DNA of 64,000 nucleotides from Minisyncoccota bacterium (GTDB lineage: Bacteria > Patescibacteriota > Minisyncoccia > Phycocordibacterales > XYD1-FULL-46-19): positions 64,623-128,622 of the forward strand of contig JBAZMZ010000001.1 of the NCBI GenBank assembly GCA_041649495.1, read 5' to 3'. A model generated the notes under the pieces. That model was not told where the DNA came from. It worked only from the letters and a program-made list of their open reading frames with translations, and did not search any database. Made by a program: the position numbers and the translations under genes. Below are positions 1-61,575 of this stretch, piece after piece (position 1 is the first letter of the stretch; each line of letters starts with the position of its first letter).

Positions 1-41
1 AAAAAGCAAAAGTCCCGCCAGGGGCAAACCTTGGGCGGGAC
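1..41 (-). terminator. Intrinsic terminator (GC hairpin plus T-run on minus strand) after the small ORF at 69-188
   Basis: Plus strand gtcccgcc...ggcgggac preceded by an A-run at 1-11, which is a U-run on the minus-strand RNA. Confidence 0.4.
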
Positions 42-68
42 GAACGGTCGGAACTTTGGATTTTCCAC

Positions 69-188
69 TTAGATCAAACGAAGATCTTGGTGGAGGATGA
101 CGAAGGCGATGATGGTCGTAAATCCGGCGAAGATCACCAGAATCTGCCACCATTTGGGACACCAGTTATCGTTGCCTTTTTTCTTCAT
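69..188 (-). CDS. 39-aa hydrophobic/basic small protein (MKKKGNDNWCPKWWQILVIFAGFTTIIAFVILHQDLRLI)
   Basis: ATG preceded by GGAGGGG SD and followed by a terminator; below the ORF-track length cutoff. Confidence 0.3.
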   Translation of the reverse strand: MKKKGNDNWCPKWWQILVIFAGFTTIIAFVILHQDLRLI

Positions 189-241
189 AATCCCCTCCCG
201 TGGTTGTTTCTGGCCCTAATGATAATCCCGAAACTGATTAT

Positions 242-270
242 TAGTCAAATTTCCCAAATCGATTTATAAT
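242..270 (+). promoter_or_regulatory. Sigma70-like promoter TAGTCA-17-TATAAT upstream of the smc-like gene
   Basis: Hexamers with 17-bp spacing lie 8 bp before the ATG at 278. Confidence 0.35.
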
Positions 271-2624: not shown

Positions 2625-4316
2625 CTAAGCGAGTTCAAAATCAATCAACCTTTTTTCTTCATCCGCCGAGAGGACGCGGACTTTGACGGTTTGGCCGAGG
2701 TGGTAGGTCGTGTGGGTGCGTTTGCCGATGACGCGCATCTTTTTTTCATCAAAAATATAATAATCTTTGGGGAGATTGCTGAAGTGGACAAGGCCACGGG
2801 CGCCGGTTGAGAGTTCTTCGATGAACAGGCCAAAATTGGCCAGCCAAGCAATAAGGCCATCATAAGTTTTATCTTTGCGCTCCTCGAGGTAACGGCATTG
2901 GGCAAGTTTGATCGAATCGCGTTCGGCGATGGTCGCGAATTGTTCGCGTTCGCTGGCATTAGTGCAAAGTTGGTCAAGATTTTGTAAAAGTTCGAAAGGG
3001 ATTGGTTGCTTGCGTAAATAATAATCAAACAATCTGTGCACGAGCAAATCAGGATAACGGCGAATGGGCGACGTGAAATGGGTGTAATGTTTGAAGGCCA
3101 GACCAAAATGGCCAATATTTTTGGTCGAGTAAGTGGCGCGACTCATTGAGCGAACGGCGGCGTCGTTGATTACATCCTCGTCGGGCGAACCGGCCAGCGT
3201 TTTAAGAAAGGAGTTTAGAACCTGCGGGGTGATTTTTTTGCTTGCCCTGAGCGCCGTCGAAGGGTGCCCGAAGAGTTTAACAAAAGCGAAAAAGTCTTGG
3301 AGTTTTTCGGGGTCGGGTCGATCATGAACGCGGTAAACAAAAGCGTGGTCCTGATTTTTAATTAATTTTGAAACGTGCTCGGCGACTTGCTTATTGGCCA
3401 AGAGCATAAAATCTTCCACTAATTTGTGGCTCTCTAACCTTTCCTCTTTAATGATCGAAATGGGCTTGCCCTCGGTGTCAACTTCGTAATGGTACTCGTC
3501 TTCTTCGAAAGTGAGGGCGCCAGCTTTGATTTTTTTCTTGTCTAATTTGTGAGCGAGGTCTTTGAGTTTTGCTAACTCGGTGCGAAATTCCCCAGCTGAT
3601 TGAAGTTCGACTTCAAGAGAGCCCGAAGTCGAACTTCGATCAGCGTCGCCTTTCACAAAATTATTCTTTCCCTCGCTTCGCTCGGGATCTTCGGCCCTTG
3701 TTGCCACAAGGGCCTCGACTTCCTCATAAGTGAATCGCTTGTTCGAATTAATAACGGTGCGACCGAACCACTCGTTTAAAATATTGGCTTCGTTGTCCAT
3801 CGTGAAAACGGCCGAGAAGGCGAGGCGATCAACGCCCGGCTTGAGACTGCATAAATCGTTCGAAAGGGCGTGGGGGAGCATGGGGATGACTCGATCGATT
3901 AAATAAATTGAAGTGGCGCGCTTTTGGGCCTCGGCATCAAGTTTGGTCCCCAGACGAACATAAAAAGAGACATCAGCAATATGCACTCCAACTTCATATT
4001 GCTTCGCCTCGCCGGAGCCTCTCGCCTCGCCAGAGCTTTCGGCGTAGCGTGGGTTGGCGGAGGCGGGGATGACTTCGCGAAGCGAGAGGGCATCGTCGAA
4101 ATCGCGAGCTCTTACTGGGTCAATAGTTACAGTAAAAACATCACGAAAATCGCGTCTCTCGCCCCTAGCTATTTCTTGCTCAATACTGGCTTGGCCGTGA
4201 CTCGCAATGTCATCTGCTTCAGCTAGAACCTCTGGCGGGAAGGGCATTTCAAGCGTTTCGCTATCGACAAAAATTTTCTCTTTTTTGGGTAATTTGGCTT
4301 TTTTTTCTTGGCTCAT
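2625..4316 (-). CDS. rnr: RNase R / RNase II family 3'-5' exoribonuclease with C-terminal S1 domain
   Basis: RNB-domain motif HFGLAFKHYTHFTSPIRRYPDLLVHR; start placed at MSQEKK (cat at 4314-4316), downstream of a TATACT -10 box. Confidence 0.85.
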   Translation of the reverse strand: MSQEKKAKLPKKEKIFVDSETLEMPFPPEVLAEADDIASHGQASIEQEIARGERRDFRDVFTVTIDPVRARDFDDALSLREVIPASANPRYAESSGEARGSGEAKQYEVGVHIADVSFYVRLGTKLDAEAQKRATSIYLIDRVIPMLPHALSNDLCSLKPGVDRLAFSAVFTMDNEANILNEWFGRTVINSNKRFTYEEVEALVATRAEDPERSEGKNNFVKGDADRSSTSGSLEVELQSAGEFRTELAKLKDLAHKLDKKKIKAGALTFEEDEYHYEVDTEGKPISIIKEERLESHKLVEDFMLLANKQVAEHVSKLIKNQDHAFVYRVHDRPDPEKLQDFFAFVKLFGHPSTALRASKKITPQVLNSFLKTLAGSPDEDVINDAAVRSMSRATYSTKNIGHFGLAFKHYTHFTSPIRRYPDLLVHRLFDYYLRKQPIPFELLQNLDQLCTNASEREQFATIAERDSIKLAQCRYLEERKDKTYDGLIAWLANFGLFIEELSTGARGLVHFSNLPKDYYIFDEKKMRVIGKRTHTTYHLGQTVKVRVLSADEEKRLIDFELA

Positions 4317-4398: not shown

Positions 4399-4884
4399 AT
4401 GTTAATGATTAGATTACAACGGGTGGGACGCAAAAATAACCCCTCTTTTCGGGTCGTGGTTGTCGACTCGCGCGAATCAGCCAAGACTGGTAAAGTGATT
4501 GAGGTGGTGGGCTCGCATGATTCTCGTGCTCGTCGCACCGAGCTTAAGGCTGAGCGGATTAACCATTGGCTCTCAATGGGCGCTAAGACCTCAAATACGG
4601 TTAATAATCTCTTGATTAAGAAGGAAGTTGTTACCGGCAAAACGATTGATGTTTCATCTAAAAAATTAGGCAAAAAGGCTAAGGCGGCGGTTGAAGCGGC
4701 CAAAGCTTCAGAAGAAAAGGCGGCCCAAGCCGTGGCTGAAACTCCAGCCGAGACTCCCGCTGAGACCCCAGTGGCCGAGGCTCCCGCTGAAACTCCGGGT
4801 GAAGAAATTGTTGCCGAAATTCCCGCCACCGAAACTCCTGCCGAAGAAATTATCGCTGAACCAGTTGTTGAAGAAGCTGTCTAA
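4399..4884 (+). CDS. rpsP: 30S ribosomal protein S16 with a long low-complexity C-terminal extension (KA-rich then AETP repeats)
   Basis: MLMIRLQRVGRKNNPSFRVVVVDSR...ERINHWLSMGAK matches the S16 fold; 162 aa against about 85 aa typical. Confidence 0.85.
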   Translation: MLMIRLQRVGRKNNPSFRVVVVDSRESAKTGKVIEVVGSHDSRARRTELKAERINHWLSMGAKTSNTVNNLLIKKEVVTGKTIDVSSKKLGKKAKAAVEAAKASEEKAAQAVAETPAETPAETPVAEAPAETPGEEIVAEIPATETPAEEIIAEPVVEEAV

Positions 4885-4986
4885 TATTTTTTGACAAAAA
4901 TTTAGGCTGGCTTTATTATAGAGCTATGTTCGTTGTGGCCGTTTCGGTCAGGTCGAAAGATTATCAGAACCAAAAGATTTACAGTT

Positions 4987-5316
4987 ATGAATCAAGATCA
5001 GCAATTTCTCGAGTATGTCATTAAGGTGTTAGTTGATAAGCCGGAGGCGGTGAAAATCGACCGCAAGGTTGATGAGATGGGCGTATTGATGACTCTAGAG
5101 GTTGACCCGATTGATATGGGTAAGATCATTGGTCGTCAAGGTAACACGGCCAAAGCAATCCGCACCCTGCTTCGTGTGGTGGGGATGAAGATGAACGCTC
5201 GGGTTAATTTGAAGATTAACGAACCGGAGGGCGGGATGCGCCCAGCGTCGGCCCCAGTCGCGGGGAGCGCGGCCAGTTCGGTTGATGCCGCGATGGACGA
5301 CTTGAAAGATCTTTAG
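4987..5316 (+). CDS. KH-domain RNA-binding protein (YlqC/UPF0109-like)
   Basis: GKIIGRQGNTAKAIRTL KH motif; conserved position after rpsP. Confidence 0.8.
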   Translation: MNQDQQFLEYVIKVLVDKPEAVKIDRKVDEMGVLMTLEVDPIDMGKIIGRQGNTAKAIRTLLRVVGMKMNARVNLKINEPEGGMRPASAPVAGSAASSVDAAMDDLKDL

Positions 5317-5397
5317 ATCGTAGAATTTACAAAAACAAGAAACTGTGATATTATAGAAATATCGCAGTTTCTTTGTTTATTAGTTAAAAATAATAAT

Positions 5398-5799
5398 ATG
5401 AAAAAATATCTTCTTTCCGTGATCCTGTTGACACTGGTTTTCTCACCAGCCTTGACTTATGGTGCGACCAATAATAGTGCCTTGATTGCTCAATTGAGGG
5501 CTCGGGTTGCTGACTTGCAAAGACAATTGGTTTTGCTCCAAAATCAATCAACCATTAATTGCCCCCTCGATAAAGATTTGACTCTGGGTGATGGTCACGG
5601 CAATGGTTTGGGCGCGAATGTTGTCTTGCTTCAAAATTGGCTTCGGGCAAGCGGTTATCTTAATATCCCGAAACCGACTGGCTATTTTGGCCCCCTGACA
5701 AGGTCAGCGCTGAAACATTGGCAAAGAGACAATAACTTAACCGCCACGGGCAAAATTAGCGCGGGCGAACGGTTGGCTTTATGCGGTCAGGTTAATTAA
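5398..5799 (+). CDS. Secreted small protein with C-terminal peptidoglycan-binding-like domain
   Basis: Signal peptide, coiled-coil segment, and LLQNWL...YFGPLTRSALKHWQ PG_binding_1-like motif. Confidence 0.5.
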   Translation: MKKYLLSVILLTLVFSPALTYGATNNSALIAQLRARVADLQRQLVLLQNQSTINCPLDKDLTLGDGHGNGLGANVVLLQNWLRASGYLNIPKPTGYFGPLTRSALKHWQRDNNLTATGKISAGERLALCGQVN

Positions 5800-13882: not shown

Positions 13883-13895
13883 CCTCCCACCCTCC

Positions 13896-13930
13896 CCGCC
13901 AGACCTTAAGTGAGCCCAAGGTCTGGCGGG
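13896..13930 (+). terminator. 13-bp perfect hairpin CCCGCCAGACCTT/AAGGTCTGGCGGG after rpoC; member of a repeat family
   Basis: Perfect inverted repeat 14 nt after the rpoC stop; no U-tract follows. Confidence 0.4.
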
Positions 13931-14137: not shown

Positions 14138-14247
14138 ATTATTATCATAAATTAGGTCGAAAAATAAGTCAATTTTCGCAAAAGTCAGATTTTCTGCTAA
14201 CATTAACCCAGTGGAGTATAACGAAAACTCCATAGGGTAAATCACAT

Positions 14248-15975
14248 ATGGCTTCTTCGGTTGAACAAATCAAGGCGAAGCTTTCGATTGTTGAGGTCGT
14301 GGGCTCTTATTTGAAGCTTGAAAAAGCGGGAGTGAATTATCGCGGGAAATGCCCTTTCCACAACGAAAAAACCCCCTCCTTTTTCGTTTCGCCCACGCGC
14401 GGGTCTTATCATTGTTTCGGCTGTAATCGGGGAGGTGACATCATTAGCTTCGTGCAAGAAATTGAGGGACTCGATTTTATCGAAGCCCTGCGAGTTTTGG
14501 CTGAACGGGCGGGCGTGGAGCTTGAGCCTTTGCGCCGGAACGAAACGGCCGGGTATAATCGTCTCTTTAGTTTATTAGAAGAGGCGACTAAGTTTTACGC
14601 TCAGCAATTAACATTACCCCAGAACAGACCGGCCCATGATTATTTGATAGCGAGGGGTTTGACCGAAGAGAGCATTAAGAATTTTCGTTTGGGGTTTGTG
14701 CCTGAAGCTTGGCGGTCGGTTTATGATCATTTGCTTCGCTTAGGTTATCGTGAAGAAGAAATGATTAAAGTTGGTTTAGTGGTGGCCAACATGAAGGCTG
14801 GTCCGCAAGCCTCACAGGGTTATGATCGTTTTCGATCGCGACTGATGTTCCCGATTGCTAATCCGACGGGCAAAGTGGTGGGTTTTTCGGGTCGAATTTT
14901 TGGTCCAGAGACGGCGACGACCGCTAAATATATCAATACGCCCCAAACTGAACTCTACAATAAATCAAAAATTTTGTATGGTTATGATCGGGCCAAGCAA
15001 GCGATGCGTCAGAAAGACGAATGTATTTTTGTTGAAGGCCAAATGGATTTAATCATGTCATATCAAGCGGGCGCGACCAACACGGTGGCGGTGTCGGGGA
15101 CGGCGCTCACGGCCGAACATATCCAATTGGTTAAACGCTTAACGGATAATATTGTTTTAGCGAATGATTATGATTTGGCCGGACTCAAGGCCTCTCTGCG
15201 GGCGATTAATCTAATTCGCCAGGAAGAGATCAATGTCAAAATCGCCAAATTGCCGAGCGGTCAAGATCCGGCCGAGGTGATTAAAGATAATCCGGCCCAA
15301 TGGTCCGAAATTATCGCGGAGGCCAAACATTATATCGATTTTATGATCGACGCCTTACAAGAAGAAGGCAAGACGGGTTTGGAGCTTAATTTGGCGATCA
15401 ATGATTATGTTTTGCCGTATATCAAGGCCTTAACGAAGAAAATGGAACAAGCCCATTTCGTGGCTAAATTGGCGGGCCTCCTTCGAATTAGTGAAGAGGC
15501 AATTTGGGCGGATTTGCAGAAAATCAAGTTGGACGAGAACATTGCCCCGCCGGCGAAGCCGGCGGGGACCGAAGCCTTAATTGTTCCCGAAGCGATCGGT
15601 CGGCTAAAAATGATTGAAGAAAAGATTCTCGGCTTATATTTTTTGTTAATTAATAGTGGTCAAACTGAGAAGGTCTCGACTAAGTTGACTGATTTGTGGG
15701 GGGCAGATATTTTTAAGACCAAAATCGAGGGGGCTGAGCCAGAGCGTGAACGCTTGGCGTTAATGGCCGAGCTCTGGTATGATCCAGAGAGCGATCCCTT
15801 GGTTGAATTGGACGATTTGGTCCTTAATTGGCAAGAGGAGAGGCTCAAGACCGAATTAAATCAGGCTCTGGTTGAGGTTCAATCCGCCGAGAGAAATAAG
15901 GCCGAAGGGGAGTTAGCAATTAGTTTAAAAAAGTGTCAAGAATTATCAATGGCGATTAATAAATTAAAAAAATAA
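14248..15975 (+). CDS. dnaG: DNA primase
   Basis: CHC2 zinc finger [11 protein letters not shown]...CFGC, TOPRIM region, and conserved dnaG-rpoD adjacency. Confidence 0.95.
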
Positions 15976-15977
15976 TT

Positions 15978-17282
15978 ATGGCCAAGAAACAAGTGAACAA
16001 GATCGCAAAAAAGAAAGCCGTCAAAAAAAGCCAGTCGGTTAAATCAAAAATTAAAACTAAGTCTCGACCCAAACCAAAAGTGGTCAAGAAAGTGGTCAAA
16101 AAAGAGCGCAAGCCGATCAAGAAATCCCTCGATAAATCTAGGTCAAGAAAACCTGTTAAATCAGCGGTGGTGATTAATAAAAAAGAAGCCCTCGCTCTTA
16201 AAAAAAGTGGCCAGAGTTTAGAAGAAAAAACAAATCAAAAAGTTGAAATGCTGGTGACGAAGGGGCGGAGCCGAGGTTTTATTACTTATTCCGAAATTCT
16301 CAAAGAATTTCCTAATATTGAAAATGATATTTTGTGGTTAGATCAACTCTACACGCGTTTAGAAGAAACGGGCGTGGATATTTTAGAAGAAGGCAGTTTG
16401 CTTGATCCAGATATAAAAATTGATGAGAAGATTAAGGTGGAGCGAGGGGGTGTTTCTTTTGACTCTGTCCAAATGTATTTGCGCGAAATCGGTAAACACA
16501 AACTTTTGACGGGGGCGGAGGAAAAGGAGATGGCCAAGAAGATCTTACTCGGTGATGATGACGCGAAAAAAGATTTGGCTCGAGCTAACCTGCGCTTAGT
16601 GGTGTCGATTGCCAAAAAATATATCGGGCGGAGTCAAGACCTATCACTCTTAGACTTAATTCAAGAGGGGAATATCGGTTTGTTTAAAGCGGTGGAGAAA
16701 TTTGATTGGCGCAAAGGTTATAAATTCTCAACCTACGCGACTTGGTGGATTCGTCAGGCGGTCACGCGCGCTTTGGCCGATCAGTCGCGAACGATTCGGA
16801 TTCCGGTTCACATGGTGGAGACGATTGCTAAGTATAAGCAAGTTTATCGTCGCTTGTCGCAAGATTTGGGTCGGGATCCATTGCCTCAAGAGATTGCTAC
16901 CGAGATGGGGGTCGAGGTGGAGAAGATTCATATTATCGAAAAGATTGATCAGAGCACCGCTAGTCTTGATAAACCAACCAATAACGACGATGATAAATCG
17001 ACTCTGGGCGAATTTATCGCTGATGACAAAATTGCCGCACCTGACCAAGACTCCTCTCGACGAATCTTGCGTGACCAGATTGACGAGATTATGGGTGACC
17101 TCACGACCAAAGAGCAACGCATTTTGGAGATGCGTCACGGTTTGAAGGATGGGGTGATGCGGACGCTCGAAGAAGTGGGCAAAGAGTTTGGGGTGACCCG
17201 CGAACGCATTCGTCAAATCGAAGCGAAAGCGCACGAAAAAATTAGACAGCACGAGAAGGCGAAAAAACTGATGGGATATTAG
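15978..17282 (+). CDS. rpoD: RNA polymerase sigma-70 factor with Lys-rich (H1-like) N-terminal extension
   Basis: Regions 2-4 ([10 protein letters not shown]...YATWWIRQA, ...[18 protein letters not shown]); the N-terminal 70 aa is about 45% Lys. Confidence 0.95.
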
Positions 17283-17288
17283 GCGCTC

Positions 17289-17443
17289 GGACTTGTTCCG
17301 CTAAACAACACAGAAAACCGTTCCCGCGAACGGTTTTCTTACGCTCCGCCTCGGCCATTTCGCCGTAGTTGCTACGCAACAGAAATAAACGGCGAAAACC
17401 ATGCTGGCCGGTGCTTCGCGAGGTTGTTTAGCGGAACAAGTCC
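17289..17443. repeat. 155-bp element bounded by a perfect 21-bp inverted repeat GGACTTGTTCCGCTAAACAAC
   Basis: Arms at 17289-17309 and 17423-17443; the interior holds the rpoD terminator hairpin and further stems. Confidence 0.6.
17313..17340 (+). terminator. Intrinsic terminator AAAACCGTTC-ccgc-GAACGGTTTTCTT after rpoD
   Basis: 10-bp stem with a T-run. Confidence 0.6.
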
Positions 17444-17530
17444 TCGTTTGGCTGATAGGGGCTAATTTATCCTTATTTTACAAGGTCAATTTGCCCCGAA
17501 ACTTAGTTTCGGGGAACGAAGGCAAAGTGC

Positions 17531-17560
17531 TTGACAAGCAGGGGTGTTTGGGTGTATAAT
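17531..17560 (+). promoter_or_regulatory. Consensus sigma70 promoter TTGACA-18-TATAAT
   Basis: Both hexamers perfect; followed by GGAGG SD and the ATG at 17619. Confidence 0.6.
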
Positions 17561-17618
17561 GAAAAAGGAATTTGGTAGGAAGATTTAGGTACGTTACCAA
17601 CGAAGCGGAGGGCTCACC

Positions 17619-17987
17619 ATGAAGTTGCTTGTAGTCTTAGTTGTTATGTCCGGGGTAGTTATTGGGTCATATTCGTACAGAGAAAGGGTTTCTCAGGAGA
17701 AGGCCATTCTTGAAGAGTTGAGTGGCTTGCGCAGAGATCTTTCTCTTGCGCGTGAAGAGGAGGCGATTCTCCTCACTTATGACAAGCTCGCTTCCGGCCA
17801 TTACAAGGTGGTCGTCGTGCAGAACGAGTATGACGGCACCGCCCTTGTTAGGGGGTATGGGCCGCATGGTTATGTCGACCGCATCGTCAGGAAGATGCCC
17901 CTAGGCTTGATGGTGTCCGGACGGGAGTTCTCCATAAGCTATGATTATGCTTTCCCAAGTTGGGCATCGTCACTTACTCGAAAATAG
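17619..17987 (+). CDS. Hypothetical 122-aa protein with N-terminal TM segment; compositionally atypical (higher GC, GC3-rich codons)
   Basis: Own consensus promoter, GGAGG SD 7 nt upstream, and two tandem terminators downstream. Confidence 0.6.
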   Translation: MKLLVVLVVMSGVVIGSYSYRERVSQEKAILEELSGLRRDLSLAREEEAILLTYDKLASGHYKVVVVQNEYDGTALVRGYGPHGYVDRIVRKMPLGLMVSGREFSISYDYAFPSWASSLTRK

Positions 17988-17991
17988 CCCC

Positions 17992-18100
17992 ACGCAGGGC
18001 ACGCAAGACAGAAGGTCTTGCGTGCATCTGCGCGGGGCCTTTCTGTTTTTAAATTTAAAAATTAAGAAAAAACCACGGGAACTTAGTCTCGTGGTTTTTG
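17992..18100 (+). terminator. Two tandem intrinsic terminators (compound hairpin 17992-18050; AAAAACCACG...CGTGGTTTTT 18066-18100)
   Basis: GC stems followed by T-runs. Confidence 0.6.
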
Positions 18101-18128
18101 TTATGTTCTATTTACTAATCACTAGATA

Positions 18129-18908
18129 CTAGTTTGCTGTTGTGCTAGCAGTAGGAAGAACAGGGGATTCGGCTGGGGTTGGGTTGAGCAAGAGATCGAA
18201 GGCGGCGGCGAGACGCTCGGCGGGGAGACCACCGAAGACGGGTATATTCTGGTCAGGGGTGACGAGGACAAAGAAGGGGGTGCCTTGAGCGCCCAGGGCC
18301 ATTGCTTCATCAACGCTCTCCTGAATTTTATTGGCGTATTTTTTAGCGGTCATACAAGCCTCAAAATCTTTGGTGTCAATCGCTAGGTTTTTGGCTGTTT
18401 CGTCCAATTTGGCGGGGTCAAGTCCGTCGTTAGAAGATGTAATTTCAAAAATTTGGTCAACGAATTGCCAGAATTTTTCATTACCACCAATTTCATTAAC
18501 GCATTCGGCGGCTAAGAATTCGTTACGGCTCTTGGCGTGGAGCGAGTCAAGGGGGAAATCACGAATAACGATCGCCACTTTACCCGTTGCGACATAAGCC
18601 GTGTCGAGTTTGCGTAATTCAGTGTGGAAATATTTACAAGCGGGGCACTCTAAATCAGTATAGACAACGACCTTAATCGGTGCGGTGGCTGAACCGCGGA
18701 GATGATCGGTATTGTCCACTGGGCGAAATTGAGACAAATTGACCCCCTCGGCGATGGGTAGGAGCTCGCTAATTCCGGTTGGTAAGGTTCCCAGTTGCTC
18801 CGTTGGTTGACGAGGGTTCTGGCTCTGATAATAGAAGGCGCCGATTAGGATCAAGATACAGATTATCACCGCGATGGGGATGGCGAGAGACGAACGTTTT
18901 TCTTCCAT
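18129..18908 (-). CDS. Membrane-anchored thioredoxin-fold thiol:disulfide oxidoreductase (DsbA-like)
   Basis: N-terminal TM segment; CPACKYFH CxxC active site. Confidence 0.7.
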   Translation of the reverse strand: MEEKRSSLAIPIAVIICILILIGAFYYQSQNPRQPTEQLGTLPTGISELLPIAEGVNLSQFRPVDNTDHLRGSATAPIKVVVYTDLECPACKYFHTELRKLDTAYVATGKVAIVIRDFPLDSLHAKSRNEFLAAECVNEIGGNEKFWQFVDQIFEITSSNDGLDPAKLDETAKNLAIDTKDFEACMTAKKYANKIQESVDEAMALGAQGTPFFVLVTPDQNIPVFGGLPAERLAAAFDLLLNPTPAESPVLPTASTTAN

Positions 18909-20061: not shown

Positions 20062-20075
20062 TATAAGCCCGAAAT

Positions 20076-20160
20076 CACAAATTCTAAACTCTAAACAAAT
20101 CCCAATCTCTAAGCCTTAAACTTGTTTCGAATTTCGGATTTAAGATTTCGAATTTTAGGA
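20076..20160. repeat. AT-rich heptamer-repeat element pair (forward and reverse) upstream of the substrate-binding protein gene
   Basis: CAAATTCTAAACTCTAAACAAATCC ... CTTGTTTCGAATTTCGGATTTAAGATTTCGAATTT. Confidence 0.5.
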
Positions 20161-24586: not shown

Positions 24587-24654
24587 AATTGGTTATTTGC
24601 AGGGGGGGGTTAATTTGGTATAGTTGGGACATTATTAAATAAGCCCGAAATCAC

Positions 24655-24720
24655 AAATTCTAAACTCTAAACAAATCCCAATCTTTAAGCCTTAAACTTG
24701 TTTTGAATTTTAAGAAAATT
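24655..24720. repeat. AT-rich heptamer-repeat element pair, near-identical to the 20076-20160 copy
   Basis: CACAAATTCTAAACTCTAAACAAATCCC ... CTTGTTTTGAATTTTAAG. Confidence 0.5.
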
Positions 24721-27294: not shown

Positions 27295-27296
27295 TT

Positions 27297-27494
27297 TGGT
27301 GCACCTTGCAGGGTTCGAACCTGCGACCTTACGAATGTCTGCCCCGTTAAATATTAACTTGGTTTTGTGGACGTTACAGGATTCGAACCTGTGACCTTAC
27401 GAATGTGAATCGTACGCTCTAACCAACTGAGCTAAACGTCCAATTATTTAACGGGGTGAAAATCGTACGCTCTAACCAACTGAGCTAAAGGTGC
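27297..27494 (-). tRNA. Interrupted tRNA-Val(GAC) gene: 5' exon 27461-27494 and 3' exon 27297-27339 (encodes CCA), with a 121-nt intervening sequence containing a complete tRNA-Val(CAC)
   Basis: The two halves reconstitute a canonical 77-nt tRNA: GCACCTT/AAGGTGC acceptor, D-arm, TACGA/TCGTA anticodon stem, loop TT|GACAT, GCAGG-TTCGAAC-CCTGC T-arm. The insert is flanked by a perfect 12-bp inverted repeat CCCCGTTAAATA/TATTTAACGGGG. Confidence 0.55.
27368..27441 (-). tRNA. tRNA-Val(CAC), 74 nt, no encoded CCA
   Basis: GGACGTT-TA-GCTC-AGTTGGTTA-GAGC-G-TACGA-TTCACAT-TCGTA-AGGTC-ACAGG-TTCGAAT-CCTGT-AACGTCC-A cloverleaf. Confidence 0.8.
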
Positions 27495-27578
27495 GGGAAT
27501 AAGGAATGTGGCGTCACAGTGTTCCCTGCGACATCCGACAAAAATATAGTCGCCCCCTTCTGGGACTCCTTATTTTTG

Positions 27579-27649
27579 TGGACCTAGCGAGAATCGGACT
27601 CGCGCCTCTACAATGCGAATGTAGCGTCGTACCACTAGACTATAGGCCC
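27579..27649 (-). tRNA. tRNA-Ala(CGC) with G3:U70; atypical T-loop TCCGATT
   Basis: Acceptor GGGCCTA/TAGGTCC with a G-U pair at position 3; anticodon stem CTACA/TGTAG with loop TTCGCAT; T-stem GCGAG/CTCGC. Confidence 0.6.
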
Positions 27650-27667: not shown

Positions 27668-28690
27668 TTACCTTATACTGGTGTAGATGTCGAGGAGGGA
27701 AACTAGGAGTCTAACGGTGAGGGGACCAAGGATGAAGCCGATGGGACCAAAGAGGCTGAGGCCCCCCAAAACTGATAGAAGGATGAGGAGAGGGTGAAGG
27801 CCGATACCTTTACCGACGAATTTGGGACCCAGCAGATTATCGATTAAACTGACGGCTAAGATACCCCAAGCCAAGAGGCCGATGGCGCTAATGACTTGGC
27901 CGGTGAGATAAAGGTAGATGATGGCTGGGACGATAACAATGGCGGTACCGACGCTTGGGACGAGCGCGCCAACGGCGGCCAGAGTGCCCCAGATAATTGG
28001 ATTGGGCACCCCAAAAATTAAGAAGCCAATTGATGACGAAAGGCCCTGCAAAATGGCAATGAGCAAACTGCCCTTAATGACCAAGTTAACGGCTTGGGTA
28101 ATTTTTTTGATAATTATCTCGTCATCATTTTTGGTTAGAGGGCTAAGGCTAATGATTTTTTGTTTAAGTTGTTCGCCGTCTTTAAGTAGAAAAAAGAAGG
28201 CGATGAGGAAGACAAATAAATTGGCGATGATCTTGGCGAGGTTAGAGAAAACCAGACCCAAATTTTGGACGAAGAAACTTAAGATATTTTGAACGTATTG
28301 ATTAAGGTCAAAAGATAGATTATCAAAGATGGGGGAGATAGCGCTTAATCGTTGCCCAAGACCAGGCCAAAATTCGGTCAGTGATTGCTGGTTAAAATTA
28401 GTGGTAAGCGAAAAATAGAGACCTTGGGCTTCTTGAAAAATCTGGCTGACTAGAAAAGTGAGGGGGATTAAAATAAAAGTAATCAAAATCAAGATTGTTA
28501 AAAAAGAGGCCAGCCAGGTTTGTTGGCGAACGCGTTTAAGGAGTTGTCGATAAAGGGGTTGAAAGACGATGGCAAAAACGCTGGCTAAAATTAGCGAATA
28601 CAAAAATGGTTTCAAGACAAAAAAGGAAAGGACGAGAGATAAGCTCAAAAGGATTAATAAAAAATATAAACGAGGTTTTTTGCTAGTCAT
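27668..28690 (-). CDS. AI-2E family transporter (UPF0118/PerM-like membrane protein)
   Basis: Eight TM segments and the C-terminal GLHPLLILLSVLGG..G.IGFILGP signature. Confidence 0.7.
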   Translation of the reverse strand: MTSKKPRLYFLLILLSLSLVLSFFVLKPFLYSLILASVFAIVFQPLYRQLLKRVRQQTWLASFLTILILITFILIPLTFLVSQIFQEAQGLYFSLTTNFNQQSLTEFWPGLGQRLSAISPIFDNLSFDLNQYVQNILSFFVQNLGLVFSNLAKIIANLFVFLIAFFFLLKDGEQLKQKIISLSPLTKNDDEIIIKKITQAVNLVIKGSLLIAILQGLSSSIGFLIFGVPNPIIWGTLAAVGALVPSVGTAIVIVPAIIYLYLTGQVISAIGLLAWGILAVSLIDNLLGPKFVGKGIGLHPLLILLSVLGGLSLFGPIGFILGPLTVRLLVSLLDIYTSIR

Positions 28691-28698
28691 ATTATTTA

Positions 28699-28757
28699 CC
28701 CTATGGAGTAAAAATCTTTAGATTTTATGACATTTAAATATGTCATACTCCACAGGG
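28699..28757. promoter_or_regulatory. Nested palindrome (CCCTATGGAGTA ... ATGACATTTAAATATGTCAT ... TACTCCACAGGGT) in the promoter region of the AI-2E gene
   Basis: 20-bp near-perfect palindrome at 28727-28746 nested inside an imperfect 12-bp inverted repeat; lies 9-67 bp upstream of the start codon. Confidence 0.35.
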
Positions 28758-48390: not shown

Positions 48391-48404
48391 GGTAAACCAC
48401 CCCC

Positions 48405-48440
48405 CCCGCCACACCTCGGGCTCACCAGAGGTCTGGCGGG
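48405..48440 (+). terminator. Hairpin CCCGCCACACCTC/GAGGTCTGGCGGG followed by a T-rich tract; CCAGACC-family member
   Basis: 13-bp stem with one mismatch after the cupin gene stop. Confidence 0.45.
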
Positions 48441-48617
48441 GGCGGTTTGCTTGCTTTGCTTTTTAGGAGGACTTGTGCTATACTAAAAGGGCTAGTGATC
48501 TCCATCGCTTTCATCTTCAAACAACTTGATTTCGGGCGTTCGAAAACAAGGGGCGAGATGACCAAGTGATCGTGAGCCACGGTCGTCAAGCCAATTAAAT
48601 TTAAACTAAGTAAGTTA

Positions 48618-54845: not shown

Positions 54846-54874
54846 TTGACAAATAGACGGCTTTTTGCTATACT
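54846..54874 (+). promoter_or_regulatory. Sigma70 promoter TTGACA-17-TATACT
   Basis: Perfect -35 and a good -10, about 75 bp upstream of the ATG at 54952. Confidence 0.5.
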
Positions 54875-54951
54875 AATAGATAGAGTGTAAGGGCGGTGTT
54901 CGCCCGTTGAGAGTTCGAAACTATGGCCATTGTGGCCGGAGGAAAACGGAA

Positions 54952-55443
54952 ATGAGCAAGAAGGAAAAGTTGGTTGTCCTGTTGATCTTTATGACGTTTA
55001 CTCTTAGTTTGTGGCAGTTGTCTTCTCCTCTGCGTAGCGATCTGGGAGAGGATTTAGTGGCAGAGGACGAAGTTGCCATCCTCACGGGTTTGGCCAGTCT
55101 TCATATCGAGACCCGAGATCTGGGCTGGTTGCCAGTAGTTTGGATGGAAGGGGTAGATGATGCCAGCGGGTTGTCTATGGTTATCATTTCTCTCGACCCC
55201 AACCATCCCAAGGAAATGGGGACGTGGCGACCGGTAATCCTGAGAACGGGAGGGTTCAATCCGGACAGGCGATCTTACCCGCAAATCGCGGGAGGTGCGT
55301 CGGGCATCTTCGCCCACGTCTATTCCAGTGAGACGAAGATTGAGCAAGCGCCGTTCATGATCGTCTTCTATGTTGGCGAAGGGGAGCTTCTTGGTGGAGT
55401 GGCCTACTCGGCGTACCTGGCTGAAAAAGAGGGGAAACCGTAA
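54952..55443 (+). CDS. Hypothetical 163-aa protein with signal/TM N-terminus; compositionally atypical (GC-rich codons)
   Basis: GGAGG SD 9 nt upstream; own promoter and terminator; codon usage differs from neighbours. Confidence 0.55.
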   Translation: MSKKEKLVVLLIFMTFTLSLWQLSSPLRSDLGEDLVAEDEVAILTGLASLHIETRDLGWLPVVWMEGVDDASGLSMVIISLDPNHPKEMGTWRPVILRTGGFNPDRRSYPQIAGGASGIFAHVYSSETKIEQAPFMIVFYVGEGELLGGVAYSAYLAEKEGKP

Positions 55444-55456
55444 CCCCCCCCGAAAC

Positions 55457-55495
55457 AGCCCTACTGCGAGGCCTTGCCTCCGGTAGGGCTTTCGC
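55457..55495. terminator. Hairpin AGCCCTAC...GTAGGGCT with T-rich tail, between the 54952 ORF and eno (convergent)
   Basis: 8-bp stem with a nested inner stem; T/A runs on both sides. Confidence 0.5.
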
Positions 55496-55558: not shown

Positions 55559-56878
55559 CTACAAAACTGGGGATCTTGTCGAAAGTTTGGTTTCGATTGC
55601 GAGTAGGCGATTATATTTGGCGAGGCGTTCGGGGCGGGAGGGGGCGCCGGATTTAAGAAAATCAGCGGAAACGGCGACAGCGAGGTCAGCAATGGTGGTG
55701 TCGAGGGTTTCGCCCGAGCGGTGGGACACAATTATTTTGTAGTTCACCGATTGCGCCAATTTGATGACGGCCAGGGTTTCGCTCAAGGTGCCAATCTGAT
55801 TGGGTTTGATGATAATGGCGTTAGCCACTTTTTTATCAATACCCTCATGCAAGCGCGCGAGATTGGTCACAAACAAATCATCGCCGACTAAATTAATCTT
55901 ATTGCCTAAGCGAGCGGTTAATTCTTGCCAGCCCGTCCAGTCATCTTCGCCCAAGCCATCTTCAATTGAGATGATGGGATATTTTTTAATTAATTCTTCA
56001 TAGCTATTTATTAATTCGGCGCTAGTTAAGGTCTGGAGGATGGTTGGCCCCACGGGCAGACCTTTAGGAAAAACATAATTACCTGTCTGCACTGACCGGT
56101 CGTTAGTTTTCAATTCGTTGGCCGCTACGTCAAGCGCGAGGGCCACTTGTTCACCCGGTTTGTAGCCAGCTTGTTCGATGGCTTCAACGAGTAGGTCTAG
56201 GGCCTCGGTGTTGCTCGAGAGGGTGGGCGCAAAACCGCCTTCGTCGCCTAGCTCGAGGCTTAAGTTTTTGGCTTCAAGAATTTTTTTCAATGCTTGATAA
56301 ATGTCTTGGCCCCAAGTTAAGGCTTCGCGAAAACTGGAGGTCCCAATTGGCACAATCATAAATTCTTGAATATCGGTGGAATTTGAGGCGTGCCGGCCAC
56401 CGTTGAGGATGTTGAACATAGGGAGGGGAAAGGCGGTGCGAAGTCCGACTTCGGGCTCACTTGAAGTCGGACTTCCCACCGTCGAGGAGGACTCACCTCG
56501 AACACTATTAATAATTATCTCAAAAAGTTCTTGGTTCTGGCTTAAAGCCAAGGCGTGAGCGAAGGCGAGCGAAACACCGAGAGTGGCGTTGGCCCCCAAA
56601 TGATTTTTGTTGGGTGTACCATCAAGGGCAATTAATTCGACATCGAGCGATTCTTGGTCGAAATCGTGACCAATTAATTTTTGAGAGATTTCACCCTTGA
56701 CCTTGGTGACGGCTTGGCTGGCGGGTAAAGCGACAGCTTCATGTTGGCCAGTTGAGGCACCAGCGGGCACGGCGGCTTGGCCGACAAATTGATTGTTTAA
56801 TTCCAACTCGACTTCTAGCGTAGGGTTCCCTCGCGAATCAGAAATTTCTCGCGCCTCAAGTTTGGTAATTTTTGCCAT
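55559..56878 (-). CDS. eno: Enolase (phosphopyruvate hydratase)
   Basis: N-terminal EISDSRGNPTLEVEL, SHRSGETLDTTIADLAVA, and IIKPNQIGTLSETL motifs. Confidence 0.95.
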   Translation of the reverse strand: MAKITKLEAREISDSRGNPTLEVELELNNQFVGQAAVPAGASTGQHEAVALPASQAVTKVKGEISQKLIGHDFDQESLDVELIALDGTPNKNHLGANATLGVSLAFAHALALSQNQELFEIIINSVRGESSSTVGSPTSSEPEVGLRTAFPLPMFNILNGGRHASNSTDIQEFMIVPIGTSSFREALTWGQDIYQALKKILEAKNLSLELGDEGGFAPTLSSNTEALDLLVEAIEQAGYKPGEQVALALDVAANELKTNDRSVQTGNYVFPKGLPVGPTILQTLTSAELINSYEELIKKYPIISIEDGLGEDDWTGWQELTARLGNKINLVGDDLFVTNLARLHEGIDKKVANAIIIKPNQIGTLSETLAVIKLAQSVNYKIIVSHRSGETLDTTIADLAVAVSADFLKSGAPSRPERLAKYNRLLAIETKLSTRSPVL

Positions 56879-58291: not shown

Positions 58292-59283
58292 TTAGATTTG
58301 GTGCCCACTTTGAAACCATTAAGGAAATCGGTCCAAGCCATCTCCTTTTTGCCGGCGGGGGTGACTCGATCGTAAATTAATTGTTCGCCTTCGAGGTGGG
58401 CTTGTTTAACAATCACCCTGATTTTACCGGCTGGTCCCGGGTAATCAAGATAGGTACCTGGCCACGGATTAAGGGCGAGGATTTTTCGATAATTAGTTAA
58501 CGGCAAATCATTTTGACCAAGCAGGCCATCTTCTTTGACGAATTTTTTGGTGTAAGTGGCCTGGTTATGGTCTTGTTCCTGTTCTTCAATCTTGTCGGTT
58601 AAATAATCTGGTAAAATTTTAATCAATAAATTTGTTCCCAATTCGGCAGTTTTATCACGAAGTTGCTCAAAATTAAATAAGGGGATACCTTGTCCGGCAT
58701 TTGTTCCGAGTTCTGGTCGAGGGGAGCTTAGGTTGAGGGATTCGCTGGCCAAGATTGGTCCGTGATCCATTTCGGCATCAAGCTTGATAATTGTCACGCC
58801 GGTTTCGGTATCACCATTTAGAATGGCAGTCTCAAGCGGGGATGGCCCGCGATATTTTGGTAATAACGATGGATGAATATTAAGTGTGCCTTTTGTCGGA
58901 ATATCCAAAATTTCTGGCGGAATGATTTTGCCATACGAGGCCACCAAGAAAAAATCCCAAGAGCGGACCGAAGTCGTATCTCGCGTAGCCAGATCCGACT
59001 TCGGGGAGCTCTGGGTCAAATTTTCTGAAGTCGCATTTAGCTCAGCAAAAAACGACTTCGAAAATTCTGGACCCTTTAAACTCGCCAATTGCATTACCGC
59101 CACCCCATTTTTCTCGCCCCAAACTTTCACCAACGGGGGAGTCATCACCATCTTTCGCCCCTGCGGTTTGTCGGGGATGGTAATAATCAATTTGGGTGTC
59201 AACCCTTTTCCCTTGAGTGTCTCCAACACCCTGACACTAAACTCATCCGTCCCGAAAAAAACAAAATTTACATTATTTATCAT
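58288..59283 (-). CDS. fmt: Methionyl-tRNA formyltransferase
   Basis: FFGTDEFSV..., SYGKIIP, and HPSLLPKYRG formyltransferase motifs; one low-complexity insertion. Confidence 0.9.
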   Translation of the reverse strand: MINNVNFVFFGTDEFSVRVLETLKGKGLTPKLIITIPDKPQGRKMVMTPPLVKVWGEKNGVAVMQLASLKGPEFSKSFFAELNATSENLTQSSPKSDLATRDTTSVRSWDFFLVASYGKIIPPEILDIPTKGTLNIHPSLLPKYRGPSPLETAILNGDTETGVTIIKLDAEMDHGPILASESLNLSSPRPELGTNAGQGIPLFNFEQLRDKTAELGTNLLIKILPDYLTDKIEEQEQDHNQATYTKKFVKEDGLLGQNDLPLTNYRKILALNPWPGTYLDYPGPAGKIRVIVKQAHLEGEQLIYDRVTPAGKKEMAWTDFLNGFKVGTKSN

Positions 59284-59431
59284 TAAGAGAGTATAACAAA
59301 AATGTTTCTTTTTTGCATTGCAGGTCTTGATACTTTAACCGAAAAGATGCTATCTTTTAGACAGATTGAGTCTGGGTTTGGGGTGTGCCCAATACCAGAG
59401 AGATAGGAAAAGCAAACTGGAGGGTTGACCC

Positions 59432-60070
59432 ATGTGGTTAACAGCGTGTTTAGTTGTCATGTTGCTTGGTCTGATGTTGTCCGCGGTGGTTCATAGGCGC
59501 CGGCGTCAGGAAGAACTTCTTTTTTGGCCCGACAGGCTTCCCCCGAATCGGCGGGTTGAAGAGGCCAAGAGATTGCTTGACGAGATGGAGTTTGATTGGG
59601 GGGAGGAAACTGGTAGCCCCTTCTTCCAATACCGCCTCCTCCTAAAGAAATGGCCTGGCCTAGCAGATGACCGTATCACTCTCGACTTGGCCAAGGGAGT
59701 TGTTCAAGCCACAAGGAGGAAAAACTCAAGGAGAATCCAGCGTGCCATCTCCGAGGGTCGGGTATCTGATTTGGGCAAGGCGTTTGCGGAGCTCCGGTCG
59801 TGCTCGCCGGATATTGATAAGATCGTCAATACGGACGAAGAGCTCCGACAGTCTTGGTTTCAGGCCAGAGCCGAGATTTTGTATGGCCAAGTTCTTTTGG
59901 CCGAAGGACGAGAACGCAAGTGTCAACGGGACGACCGAATCCGCGATCTATTATGGTTTCTAGTCGGGGAATTGGTCTTTGAGAGAGAAGATCTCCCTGG
60001 TGACTCTCTCAGTAATGTTGTCCAATCGCTTGTCCGAGATTTTGGTCCTCCCCCCTATCGAAACAAGTGA
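59432..60070 (+). CDS. Hypothetical 212-aa protein (N-terminal TM, Arg-rich), antisense-oriented between def and fmt; compositionally atypical
   Basis: GGAGGGTTGACCC-ATG SD; GC-rich codons; own terminator. Confidence 0.5.
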   Translation: MWLTACLVVMLLGLMLSAVVHRRRRQEELLFWPDRLPPNRRVEEAKRLLDEMEFDWGEETGSPFFQYRLLLKKWPGLADDRITLDLAKGVVQATRRKNSRRIQRAISEGRVSDLGKAFAELRSCSPDIDKIVNTDEELRQSWFQARAEILYGQVLLAEGRERKCQRDDRIRDLLWFLVGELVFEREDLPGDSLSNVVQSLVRDFGPPPYRNK

Positions 60071-60084
60071 TTGCCTTGCCGTGT

Positions 60085-60135
60085 TGTCTATGCCCTGTGC
60101 TTGCCTCTTGGCGAGCACGGGGCGCCTTTTTTTAT
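60085..60135 (+). terminator. Intrinsic terminator GCCCTGTGCTTGCC...GCGAGCACGGGGC with a long T-run
   Basis: Imperfect 10-13-bp stem plus TTTTTTTATTT; overlaps the last codons of def on the opposite strand. Confidence 0.55.
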
Positions 60136-60653: not shown

Positions 60654-60754
60654 AATTAATAACTATAATTTACAACATTTTTCCCAAATAGACAAATTGG
60701 GTTTTTAGTGCTAGGAATTAATTGGACATGAACCTTGGAAAGGAGGTGATAAAT

Positions 60755-61522
60755 ATGTCCGAACCATACATTGGGATCACTGACTTCTTGACCTACGAAC
60801 AAGTCAAGAGAATGCTTAGAGCGTTTAAGGCTCACCGTTCAAAGAAATCAAGACGCCGGCTCCATGTCGGTGTCATGATGAGCCGCAAGACGCTTCGCGG
60901 TCTCGAAACCAAGGGGTCGCAAGCTTTTCCGCCCAAGGAAACAATAGACAGTATCTTTTCTTCGGACGAGGTAATGAATTGTCTCCACTACGCGGACTAT
61001 GGCTACGACCCTGACCTTGGCAAGAACTTAAGTGAAGCAATCGGTTATGGTGGCATCGGTATCAACGCTCTTCAGCTCGATATGGTTTGGCCAGATCCTG
61101 GTCAGATTGCGCATGGGGTTCATACCTCGCGCAAACAGCTCGAGATCATTCTTCAGATAGGCGAGAGGGCCCTTGATGAAGCGGGAAATGATCCAATTGC
61201 CACGGTTGAAAGACTTCAGGACTACGAAGGAGTGATTCACCATGTGCTACTCGACAAGAGTATGGGGAGGGGCCTCGGCATGGATGCCGTCGGGCTCATT
61301 CCTTTCGCTTGGGCGATCAAGGAGAGCTTCCCGACCCTTGGCCTTGGTGCCGCTGACGGGCTGGGACCAAACACTGTTCAACTGGTCAAACCACTTCTTC
61401 AAGCATTTCCCGATTTGAGTATGCAGGGGAAACTTCGACCAAGTGGCAACGCCCTTGACCCGATTGACTGGGGCATGGCCGAAACCTATCTCGTGGAAGC
61501 CCTCGATTTAACCCGTTCGTGA
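60755..61522 (+). CDS. Hypothetical 256-aa protein, antisense-oriented between priA and def; compositionally atypical
   Basis: AAGGAGGTGATAAAT-ATG SD; GC-rich codons; followed by a 12-bp-stem hairpin at 61527-61577. Confidence 0.5.
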   Translation: MSEPYIGITDFLTYEQVKRMLRAFKAHRSKKSRRRLHVGVMMSRKTLRGLETKGSQAFPPKETIDSIFSSDEVMNCLHYADYGYDPDLGKNLSEAIGYGGIGINALQLDMVWPDPGQIAHGVHTSRKQLEIILQIGERALDEAGNDPIATVERLQDYEGVIHHVLLDKSMGRGLGMDAVGLIPFAWAIKESFPTLGLGAADGLGPNTVQLVKPLLQAFPDLSMQGKLRPSGNALDPIDWGMAETYLVEALDLTRS

Positions 61523-61575
61523 AGTACAACAAAACCCAAATCGTTTGTTGTGTGAGACGAGGCGGGTTTTGTTGT

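Follow-up and report, generated by a model that had tools for sequence, protein, structure and literature searches.

Small genes with Shine-Dalgarno leaders at core-operon junctions of a Paceibacteria chromosome segment

The 64-kb stretch of DNA analysed here (~45% G+C; hereafter the window) is a chromosome segment of a member of the class Paceibacteria, within the Candidate Phyla Radiation (CPR)/Patescibacteria. Five small open reading frames (ORFs) in the window, among them the gene at 17619-17987 between rpoD and dsbA that is the focus of this report, are preceded by a well-placed Shine-Dalgarno (SD) motif. We consider it probable that in this lineage SD-led autonomous units are confined to lineage-specific genes at the junctions of core operons, that the core genes are SD-independent, and that the focal unit is one such lineage-specific gene. 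Much of bacterial diversity belongs to the CPR, whose members have unusual ribosomes, and to our knowledge there has so far been no experimental study of how they initiate translation.

The five ORFs begin at 17619, 54952, 59432 and 60755 on the plus strand and at 188 on the minus strand (188-69). Each has GGAGG 5-9 nt 5' of its ATG, an arrangement seen in none of the ~58 other genes of the window, which served as our native comparison set. Duplexes with the anti-SD ACCUCCUUA were predicted at -9.5 to -12.9 kcal/mol for the five ORFs versus a mean of -0.87 kcal/mol for the 58 genes, and random 20-mers of the window averaged -2.79 kcal/mol, so that native starts pair more weakly than random sequence. 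The single other duplex energy below -8 kcal/mol came from a G-run before 21343 that is not an SD. As GGAGG is not enriched in the window overall (92 occurrences versus 103 +/- 11 in shuffles), the SD signal is one of placement; by a rough estimate ~0.35 genes with a correctly spaced GGAGG would be expected by chance, and five were seen. The original prediction, made from the letters of the window alone, had held that its native genes lack an SD and that five small ORFs carry a well-spaced one, and both statements are borne out.

These ORFs also differ from their neighbours in composition and in how they end. G+C-rich hairpins with a U-run stand after the stop codons (dG -43.4, -17.3, -29.1, -30.7 and -19.4 kcal/mol; z-scores -2.1 to -8.1). 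The G+C content at third codon positions (GC3) is 0.55-0.68 in the five ORFs versus 0.458 +/- 0.066 in the other genes (Mann-Whitney p = 0.0004), in keeping with the higher-GC codons first noticed in the sequence, and the codon score is 0.04-0.15 versus 0.34 +/- 0.07 bits per codon in native genes. Codon scores so far below those of native genes would suit spurious ORFs in G+C-rich spacers, with GGAGG and hairpins being parts of non-coding elements. The spacers do hold structured non-coding elements (17281-17455) and palindromic repeats, and the 39-residue ORF at 188-69 fails the frame test. We nevertheless regard this explanation as very improbable: in four of the five ORFs the annotated frame outscored the other five frames, SD spacing is optimal, promoter and terminator bracket the ORFs (except that 60755 has no convincing promoter), and the products of 17619 and 60755 are conserved at the protein level and have confident folds. 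For these two genes it is largely refuted.

An autonomous gene between rpoD and dsbA

The focal cassette (17500-18110, plus strand) is an ordinary, fully autonomous monocistronic gene for a small protein. Its sigma-70-type promoter, TTGACA-18 nt-TATAAT (17531-17536 and 17555-17560), scores 12/12 against the consensus and is the sole perfect promoter match between 13 and 23 kb. From the presumed transcription start, a 5' leader of ~52 nt (17567-17618) leads to the SD, GGAGGG at 17607-17612, which sits 6-7 nt 5' of the ATG at 17619; the leader is no more structured than its shuffles (z +1.3). The coding sequence (17619-17987; 122 codons) is followed by two hairpin terminators in tandem. The first, at 17987-18050, is a 23-bp imperfect hairpin (17987-18038; dG -43.4 kcal/mol, z -8.1) with a U-run, and the second, at 18068-18110, is a smaller hairpin (18068-18099; dG -17.3 kcal/mol, z -4.4) that is probably bidirectional and common to the focal gene and the convergent dsbA (18129-18908, minus strand). 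The textbook promoters that had been called at 17531 and at 54846 (11/12), and the strong tandem terminators after 17987, were thus found as described, and the cassettes do lie in gaps between conserved genes as real autonomous transcription units.

Directly upstream of the promoter, a small hairpin, CCCCGAAAC-TTA-GTTTCGGGG, can be read from the sequence at 17494-17514. Its 3' part recurs inside terminator 2, giving a direct repeat of 15 nt (17500-17514 and 18080-18094; 87% identity) around the cassette. We regard this repeat as marginal, with ~0.1-0.3 such pairs expected by chance on a rough estimate. Around cassettes 2-4, whose promoters, if any, and coding sequences are described below, no flanking direct repeats were found beyond chance, and the check for such repeats therefore yielded a single marginal instance.

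On this layout, RNA polymerase carrying the housekeeping sigma factor would start from the consensus promoter at 17531-17560, and the unstructured GGAGGG of the leader would recruit the 30S subunit through anti-SD pairing. The N-terminal helix of the 122-residue product would hold it in the membrane and leave its small beta-barrel domain exposed, and transcription would end at the tandem hairpins ahead of dsbA. High expression and the membrane topology of the protein are both predictions from these features. As to function, a role at the cell surface or in the envelope is a guess.

The focal protein belongs to a sparse family, here called SD1. It is identical to the NCBI entry 'MAG: hypothetical protein WC531_00370 [Candidatus Paceibacterota bacterium]', MAG denoting a metagenome-assembled genome, and several metagenomes hold identical copies of the locus; the nearest genomes at species level are Paceibacterota and Vogelbacteria MAGs, whose peptide deformylase is 70-79% identical. 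No family was found for it in Pfam, NCBIfam, PHROGs or PADLOC, and a word-indexed homologue search matched only the protein itself. An exhaustive HMMER search recovered five relatives with 37-51% identity, and a profile built from a three-sequence alignment of the family added one further locus in a scan of the collection. The family alignment has 15 invariant columns, including the GHYKV and D..AL positions. In the AlphaFold model an N-terminal helix, comprising a transmembrane (TM) segment and a stalk, precedes a beta-barrel at about residues 50-106 (predicted local distance difference test score, pLDDT, 84-93 for the domain); Foldseek returned no significant structural neighbour of this model. 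In the six-frame codon test the annotated frame scored best. On a distant metagenome contig (L100), the SD1-family gene (524-937) is preceded at 16-369 by a 117-residue gene that, by eye, resembles a tandem paralogue (TM segment, coiled segment and 'GNYHTKAV'), and the family may therefore expand locally.

Orthologues of the focal gene occupy the same place in other species. One relative (P0122) is encoded between rpoD and dsbA, and its gene order, rpoC-dnaG-rpoD-X-dsbA-tRNA_bind-Sua5, is that of the window; a further orthologue, in locus L095, is likewise flanked by rpoD and dsbA. Taken together, this arrangement was found in L092/L093, in L095 and in one more contig, and the gene is syntenic in at least three other species. 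Compared with the window, the orthologous loci share 85-95% identity in RpoD, 64% in DnaG, 53-66% in DsbA and ~50% in the focal protein. Because the focal gene evolves about as fast as DsbA and keeps the same junction, it appears to have been inherited in place, and we read it as vertically inherited within a subclade, with no recent import.

The expression signals have been kept along with the protein. Six family members from ~5 lineages, two of them in other genomic contexts, share an invariant TTGACA, a spacer of 17-18 nt, a -10 box, a leader of 45-60 nt, an SD and a terminator, and terminator 1 of the focal gene is homologous to the terminators of its orthologues. The SD lies 4-9 nt 5' of the start codon in all six, and the rest of the leader has diverged. 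Since promoter and SD were kept in the six members while the leader diverged, the focal SD seems to be selectively maintained, and from this apparent selection we infer that the ribosome uses it.

These observations bear on a rival account, in which the cassettes are recent horizontal acquisitions, fresh from SD-using donors such as other bacteria, a host, phages or plasmids, so that promoter, SD, terminator and GC3 are simply un-ameliorated and the SD need not work. Atypical GC3 and codon usage favour it. For the focal gene, it has to contend with synteny in at least three other species, with a divergence close to that of DsbA, and with the conservation of the signals. The orthologues moreover have a GC3 of 0.70-0.73 versus 0.40-0.50 in their neighbours, and the persistence of so high a value in old orthologues argues against simple non-amelioration, as even slow amelioration should have eroded it over this divergence. 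Homologues of the 17619 and 60755 products were found in metagenome contigs and MAGs only, from Patescibacteria wherever the source is labelled or the context visible. Neither a donor, nor a mobility gene, nor a clear target-site duplication was found, and searches of phage and plasmid records, IMG/VR contigs, PHROGs and PADLOC gave no match for the SD-led genes. Over the window as a whole we judge recent acquisition rather unlikely, with the reservations for individual cassettes given below.

Gene turnover at core junctions and the partition of SD motifs

The other four SD-led units vary in quality. Cassette 2 (54846-55494, plus strand) has a TTGACA-17-TATACT promoter at 54846-54874, GGAGG at 54938-54942, a coding sequence at 54952-55443 and a terminator hairpin at 55451-55494, and encodes an ORFan of 163 residues with an N-terminal TM segment. 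Cassette 3 (59327-60134, plus strand), antisense between fmt and def, combines a weak promoter-like site at 59327-59356 (9/12) with GGAGGG at 59419-59424, a coding sequence at 59432-60070 and a terminator at 60091-60134; its product has 212 residues and an N-terminal TM segment. A weak Cas1 resemblance of this protein (16 bits in three libraries) gained no backing from a PDB sequence search and was set aside as noise. Cassette 4 (60740-61575, plus strand), antisense between def and priA, consists of AAGGAGGTGA at 60740-60749, a coding sequence at 60755-61522 and a hairpin at 61526-61575, and the promoter scan found no convincing site for it. Cassette 5 (1-248, minus strand) has TTGACT-18-TATCAT at 248-219, GGGAGGGG at 199-192 with GGAGG at 194-198, the 39-codon sequence 188-69 and a terminator hairpin at 41-13 with a U-run; its coding status is the weakest of the five, the six-frame test being ambiguous.

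The product of cassette 4 is a 255-residue uncharacterised TIM barrel (pLDDT 93.8) without any hydrophobic segment. Foldseek matched it only to generic phosphate-binding TIM barrels (TM-scores 0.5-0.6). Its family counts at least 785 Patescibacteria proteins, and three sampled homologues show no SD-like motif or, at best, a weak one (AGGA/AGAG). That this cassette carries a Patescibacteria-native family is a further point against recent import. The five proteins thus differ in length and predicted fold and belong to different families or to none; they form a family only in their signals. The earlier description of most products as having no known domain agrees with the finding that none of the five has a Pfam or NCBIfam family. 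Homology searches of the five proteins, which had been proposed as a check, yielded relatives for 17619 and 60755 and none for 54952 and 59432 in related loci or in virus or plasmid searches. The ORFan status of the latter two rests on weaker searches, as exhaustive HMMER was needed to find the relatives of 17619.

The junctions themselves turn over. At rpoD|dsbA, locus L096 has an unrelated 153-residue gene, L098 is empty (137 nt), and L097 has an unrelated 212-residue gene with GGAGGAGG and an N-terminal TM segment; the public call of the latter gene (4839-5477, minus strand) begins 36 codons 3' of the SD-led ATG and so loses the TM segment. The priA-def-fmt-hpf array is conserved across Paceibacteria; the median gap is 60 nt between priA and def and 37.5 nt between def and fmt, and it is into these two gaps that 60755 and 59432, respectively, are inserted antisense. 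Of 64 related genomes, 59 have a def|fmt gap of at most 120 nt, and 17 have a priA|def gap of more than 300 nt. The closest relatives (L008, L009, L010 and L012) hold other cargo at priA|def, with at least one SD-led ORF each, and their cargo at hisphos|eno, priA|def and def|fmt is SD-led and mostly has a GC3 of at least 0.53. The hisphos|eno gap, which holds 54952 in the window, measures 6-16 nt in L009 and L012, so that cassette 2 is absent there from sister species, and in L010 it holds a different SD-led ORFan (GC3 0.68). A ParB-like gene was found at a junction in L009. Because sister species hold unrelated SD-led cargo at them, these junctions are gene-turnover hot spots, and because the same gaps are empty or differently filled in sister species, most of the cassettes behave as accessory cargo.

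Part of this pattern is what recent acquisition predicts. Cassettes 2 and 3 are absent at the junctions of sister species and lack homologues in the locus, virus and plasmid searches, and the 17 wide priA|def gaps point the same way. The genes at 54952 and 59432 may be recent imports. The suggestion that the cassettes are horizontally acquired cargo accordingly stands in so far as their junctions are variable and their composition atypical; an origin from phage, plasmid or host is unsupported, and the focal gene is syntenic with its orthologues.

The association of SD motifs with lineage-specific genes extends across the clade. In 80 Paceibacteria loci centred on def, 1.2 Mb in all, we called 1293 ORFs with a minimum length of 80 residues and compared ORFs with a match in at least 11 loci (conserved; n = 500) with ORFs unique among these 80 loci (n = 435), taking the rate at internal in-frame start codons as the expectation. 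At a threshold of -9 kcal/mol, strong SDs preceded 55 of the 435 unique ORFs (12.6%; 19.8 expected) and 8 of the 500 conserved ones (1.6%; 20.3 expected); at -11 kcal/mol the counts were 24 (5.8 expected) and 0 (6.4 expected). The excess is specific to position, with 12.6% at -18 to -3 versus 3.7-4.9% in windows further upstream, and the commonest spacing is 4-9 nt, AAGGAGGTG being one of the motifs. The SD-led unique ORFs have raised GC3 (z +0.76, p = 2e-7), and promoters scoring at least 10/12 lie 18-160 nt upstream of 22% of them versus 3% (8.7-fold, p = 3e-6). They include an L-fucose isomerase (GC3 0.70), a ParB-like protein, a subtilase and a radical-SAM protein; that such classic transferable genes are among them again favours recent acquisition. 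SD-led, promoter-bearing, terminator-closed units are thus a minority class made up almost entirely of lineage-specific genes, often antisense and turning over between species.

Under another alternative, the cassettes would make up a class devoted to abundantly expressed effectors, secreted or on the surface, with strong promoters, SDs and G/C-ending codons tuned for the envelope proteins of episymbiosis. One hydrophobic segment is indeed found in four of the five ORFs here, as it is in the unrelated gene of L097 at rpoD|dsbA; the -35 boxes of the cassettes match the consensus, unlike those of most core promoters; and GC3 is high across species in the SD1 family, as it also is in some native genes that are likely well expressed. 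Over the 80 loci, however, the 55 SD-led unique ORFs show no excess of N-terminal hydrophobic segments (18%, versus 14% of conserved and 27% of SD-less unique ORFs), and cassette 4 encodes a barrel of cytoplasmic type. We therefore hold the effector reading to be improbable, and as a general property the secreted-effector class that had been put forward does not survive the comparison. Even within the window the expected N-terminal TM segment is present in the products of 17619, 54952 and 59432, lies in the C-terminal half of the 39-residue ORF, and is missing from 60755.

Core-gene starts and the anti-SD

The start regions of native genes point to SD-independent initiation. Their -20 to -1 regions are 74% A+T and 12% G, and -10-like hexamers accumulate 6-11 nt 5' of the start, with 18 in this bin among the 58 genes versus 1-7 (mean ~4) in each 6-nt bin lying farther from the start. 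TATAAT, for example, stands 7 nt before the ATG at 278 and 8 nt before the ATG at 35513 (minus strand), and TATACT stands 6 nt before the ATG at 59283 (minus strand). Core promoters mostly lack a good -35, whereas the SD-led cassettes have consensus -35 boxes, and genes within operons are spaced by 0-20 nt. A -10 box 6-11 nt before the ATG, with no SD, is characteristic of leaderless messenger RNAs, and this placement suggests that the first genes of units are largely leaderless. The remaining core genes appear to rely on A/T-rich, G-poor upstream regions or on tight coupling to the preceding gene.

A stronger statement, which we put forward tentatively and with less confidence than the partition itself, is that Paceibacteria keep a working anti-SD but reserve SDs, consensus promoters and long leaders almost wholly for lineage-specific genes, the conserved proteome being made from leaderless or A/T-rich messages.

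Several points weigh against our account. The 3' end of the 16S ribosomal RNA, with its anti-SD, was sought, and neither the window nor 1.3 Mb of related loci contained a ribosomal RNA. The CCTCCT motif has been detected in just 48% of Parcubacteria 16S genes (PMC9297842), and an anti-SD perhaps missing from half of that group would favour recent acquisition, in which the SD need not function. Both transcription starts and the use of the SD by the ribosome of this bacterium are deduced from sequence patterns. Internal SD-like motifs are depleted in core genes (observed/expected 0.86 for GGAGG, 0.78 for CCTCC and 0.63 for GGGGG), a result that is uninformative about the anti-SD because the reverse complement is equally depleted. 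ORF calling in the 80 loci was crude, proceeding greedily by longest ORF, and the unique class defined there mixes true ORFans with spurious ORFs and genes conserved elsewhere. Finally, an SD partition between core and lineage-specific genes does not by itself explain why GC3 stays high in the SD-led genes and why their codon usage is atypical.

Spacer elements, repeats and comparison with known systems

Just upstream of the focal cassette lies a structured spacer element of ~175 nt (17281-17455, minus strand). A 21-bp closing stem with 100% complementary arms (17289-17309 and 17423-17443) encloses a long hairpin and a bidirectional terminator hairpin at 17312-17339, which also ends rpoD. In a comparison of three species, compensatory changes were found at 23 of the 55 pairs, and folding is better in the minus orientation. 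Covariance-model matches (165-193 bits) were confined to the orthologous loci, with copies at L092 1028-1198 (minus strand) and L095 3374-3542 (plus strand). The full copy in L095 lies on the opposite side of the cassette in reverse orientation, and the cassette is bracketed by partial copies that form inverted repeats (L095 2663-2765 and L092 1868-2071). The element has no Rfam family; Rfam, at gathering and E-value thresholds, reported tRNAs alone in the window (three) and no credible match within 17200-18150. Either a small RNA transcribed from the minus strand or a palindrome acting at the DNA level would account for it.

Other repeats were noted in the window. A 36-nt palindrome, GAAGTYSRACTTC-N10-GAAGTYSRACTTC, occurs at 56440-56475 in eno and at 3602-3637 in an RNase R-like gene, as well as in L092 (1217-1252), L008 (1952-1987) and L011 (3907-3942). 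In enolase it is in frame, within a stretch of 13-21 residues that L011 and L012 are missing, and elsewhere it is intergenic; by analogy, it looks like a mobile palindromic element of the RPE (Rickettsia palindromic element) kind that tolerates coding sites. Between 19311 and 24710, A/T-rich intergenic repeats of 50-114 nt, direct and inverted and 66-97% identical, flank each gene of a low-GC3 block (0.28-0.55) whose first gene matched periplasmic-binding-protein Pfam families; the copies at 20063-20134 and 24639-24710 are 97% identical. At 27295-27492, partial tRNA-Val duplicates (44 nt at 86% and 32 nt at 97%) adjoin the intact tRNA-Val(CAC) at 27367-27441 and tRNA-Ala(CGC) at 27578-27649, and look like remnants of a rearrangement or integration at a tRNA. 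Near-identical terminator hairpins, CCCGCCAGACC...GGTCTGGCGGG, stand 34 kb apart, after rpoC (13887-13930) and after a cupin gene (48397-48446), and may be a repeated terminator module. Lastly, ACTCCATAGGGTAAAT is found almost identically 2-4 nt before the ATG of dnaG (14226-14247; ATG at 14248) and before a gene at 28690 on the minus strand (28691-28712), where it may be a shared promoter or operator.

In its parts the focal cassette is like the canonical monocistronic unit of Escherichia coli or Bacillus, with a sigma-70 promoter, an SD leader and an intrinsic terminator of consensus quality at the right spacing. What sets it apart is its genome, since the other ~58 genes of the window and the conserved genes of the 80 relatives are SD-free. 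Chromosomal hot spots at which accessory genes integrate between core genes are known as genomic islets, and the cassettes resemble them in having conserved flanking core genes, variable or absent content and atypical composition. Unlike islets, the cassettes are single small genes, no integrase, transposase, tRNA target or clear target-site duplication was seen with them, and the focal gene is stably inherited within its subclade.

SD-independent regimes are also known, namely the leaderless messages of Actinobacteria and Deinococcus and the A-rich 'Kozak-like' leaders of Bacteroidetes, in which a few genes keep an SD. The window is alike in that a -10 box 6-11 nt ahead of the ATG, or an A/T-rich and G-poor upstream region, marks its core genes, with SD-led genes a small minority, but here that minority is lineage-specific cargo rather than ribosomal or regulatory genes. 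Integron gene cassettes are promoterless, end in attC and lie near an integrase gene. They too are small single-gene units with a hairpin-forming 3' end, placed serially between genes; in contrast, the window units come with consensus promoters of their own and with hairpins that are U-tailed terminators, and no integrase was seen in the annotated parts of the window.

The split of SD use between core and lineage-specific genes in this clade is a moderately novel pattern, and a limited literature search returned no description of leaderless initiation, or of a partition of SDs with accessory genes, in CPR bacteria. The split offers a handle on whether the anti-SD works in lineages that have been reported to lose it, on how gained genes come to be expressed in streamlined genomes, and on which small surface proteins episymbionts are likely to express strongly. 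Gene callers trained on the SD-less majority may place the starts of SD-led genes wrongly, as with the L097 gene. If the stronger statement above is true, the partition would amount to a two-tier expression code for core and accessory genes. Accessory and surface proteins could then be turned on or off together by the state of the ribosome, or the code could serve as a 'plug-and-play' standard through which newly gained genes are expressed wherever they are inserted.

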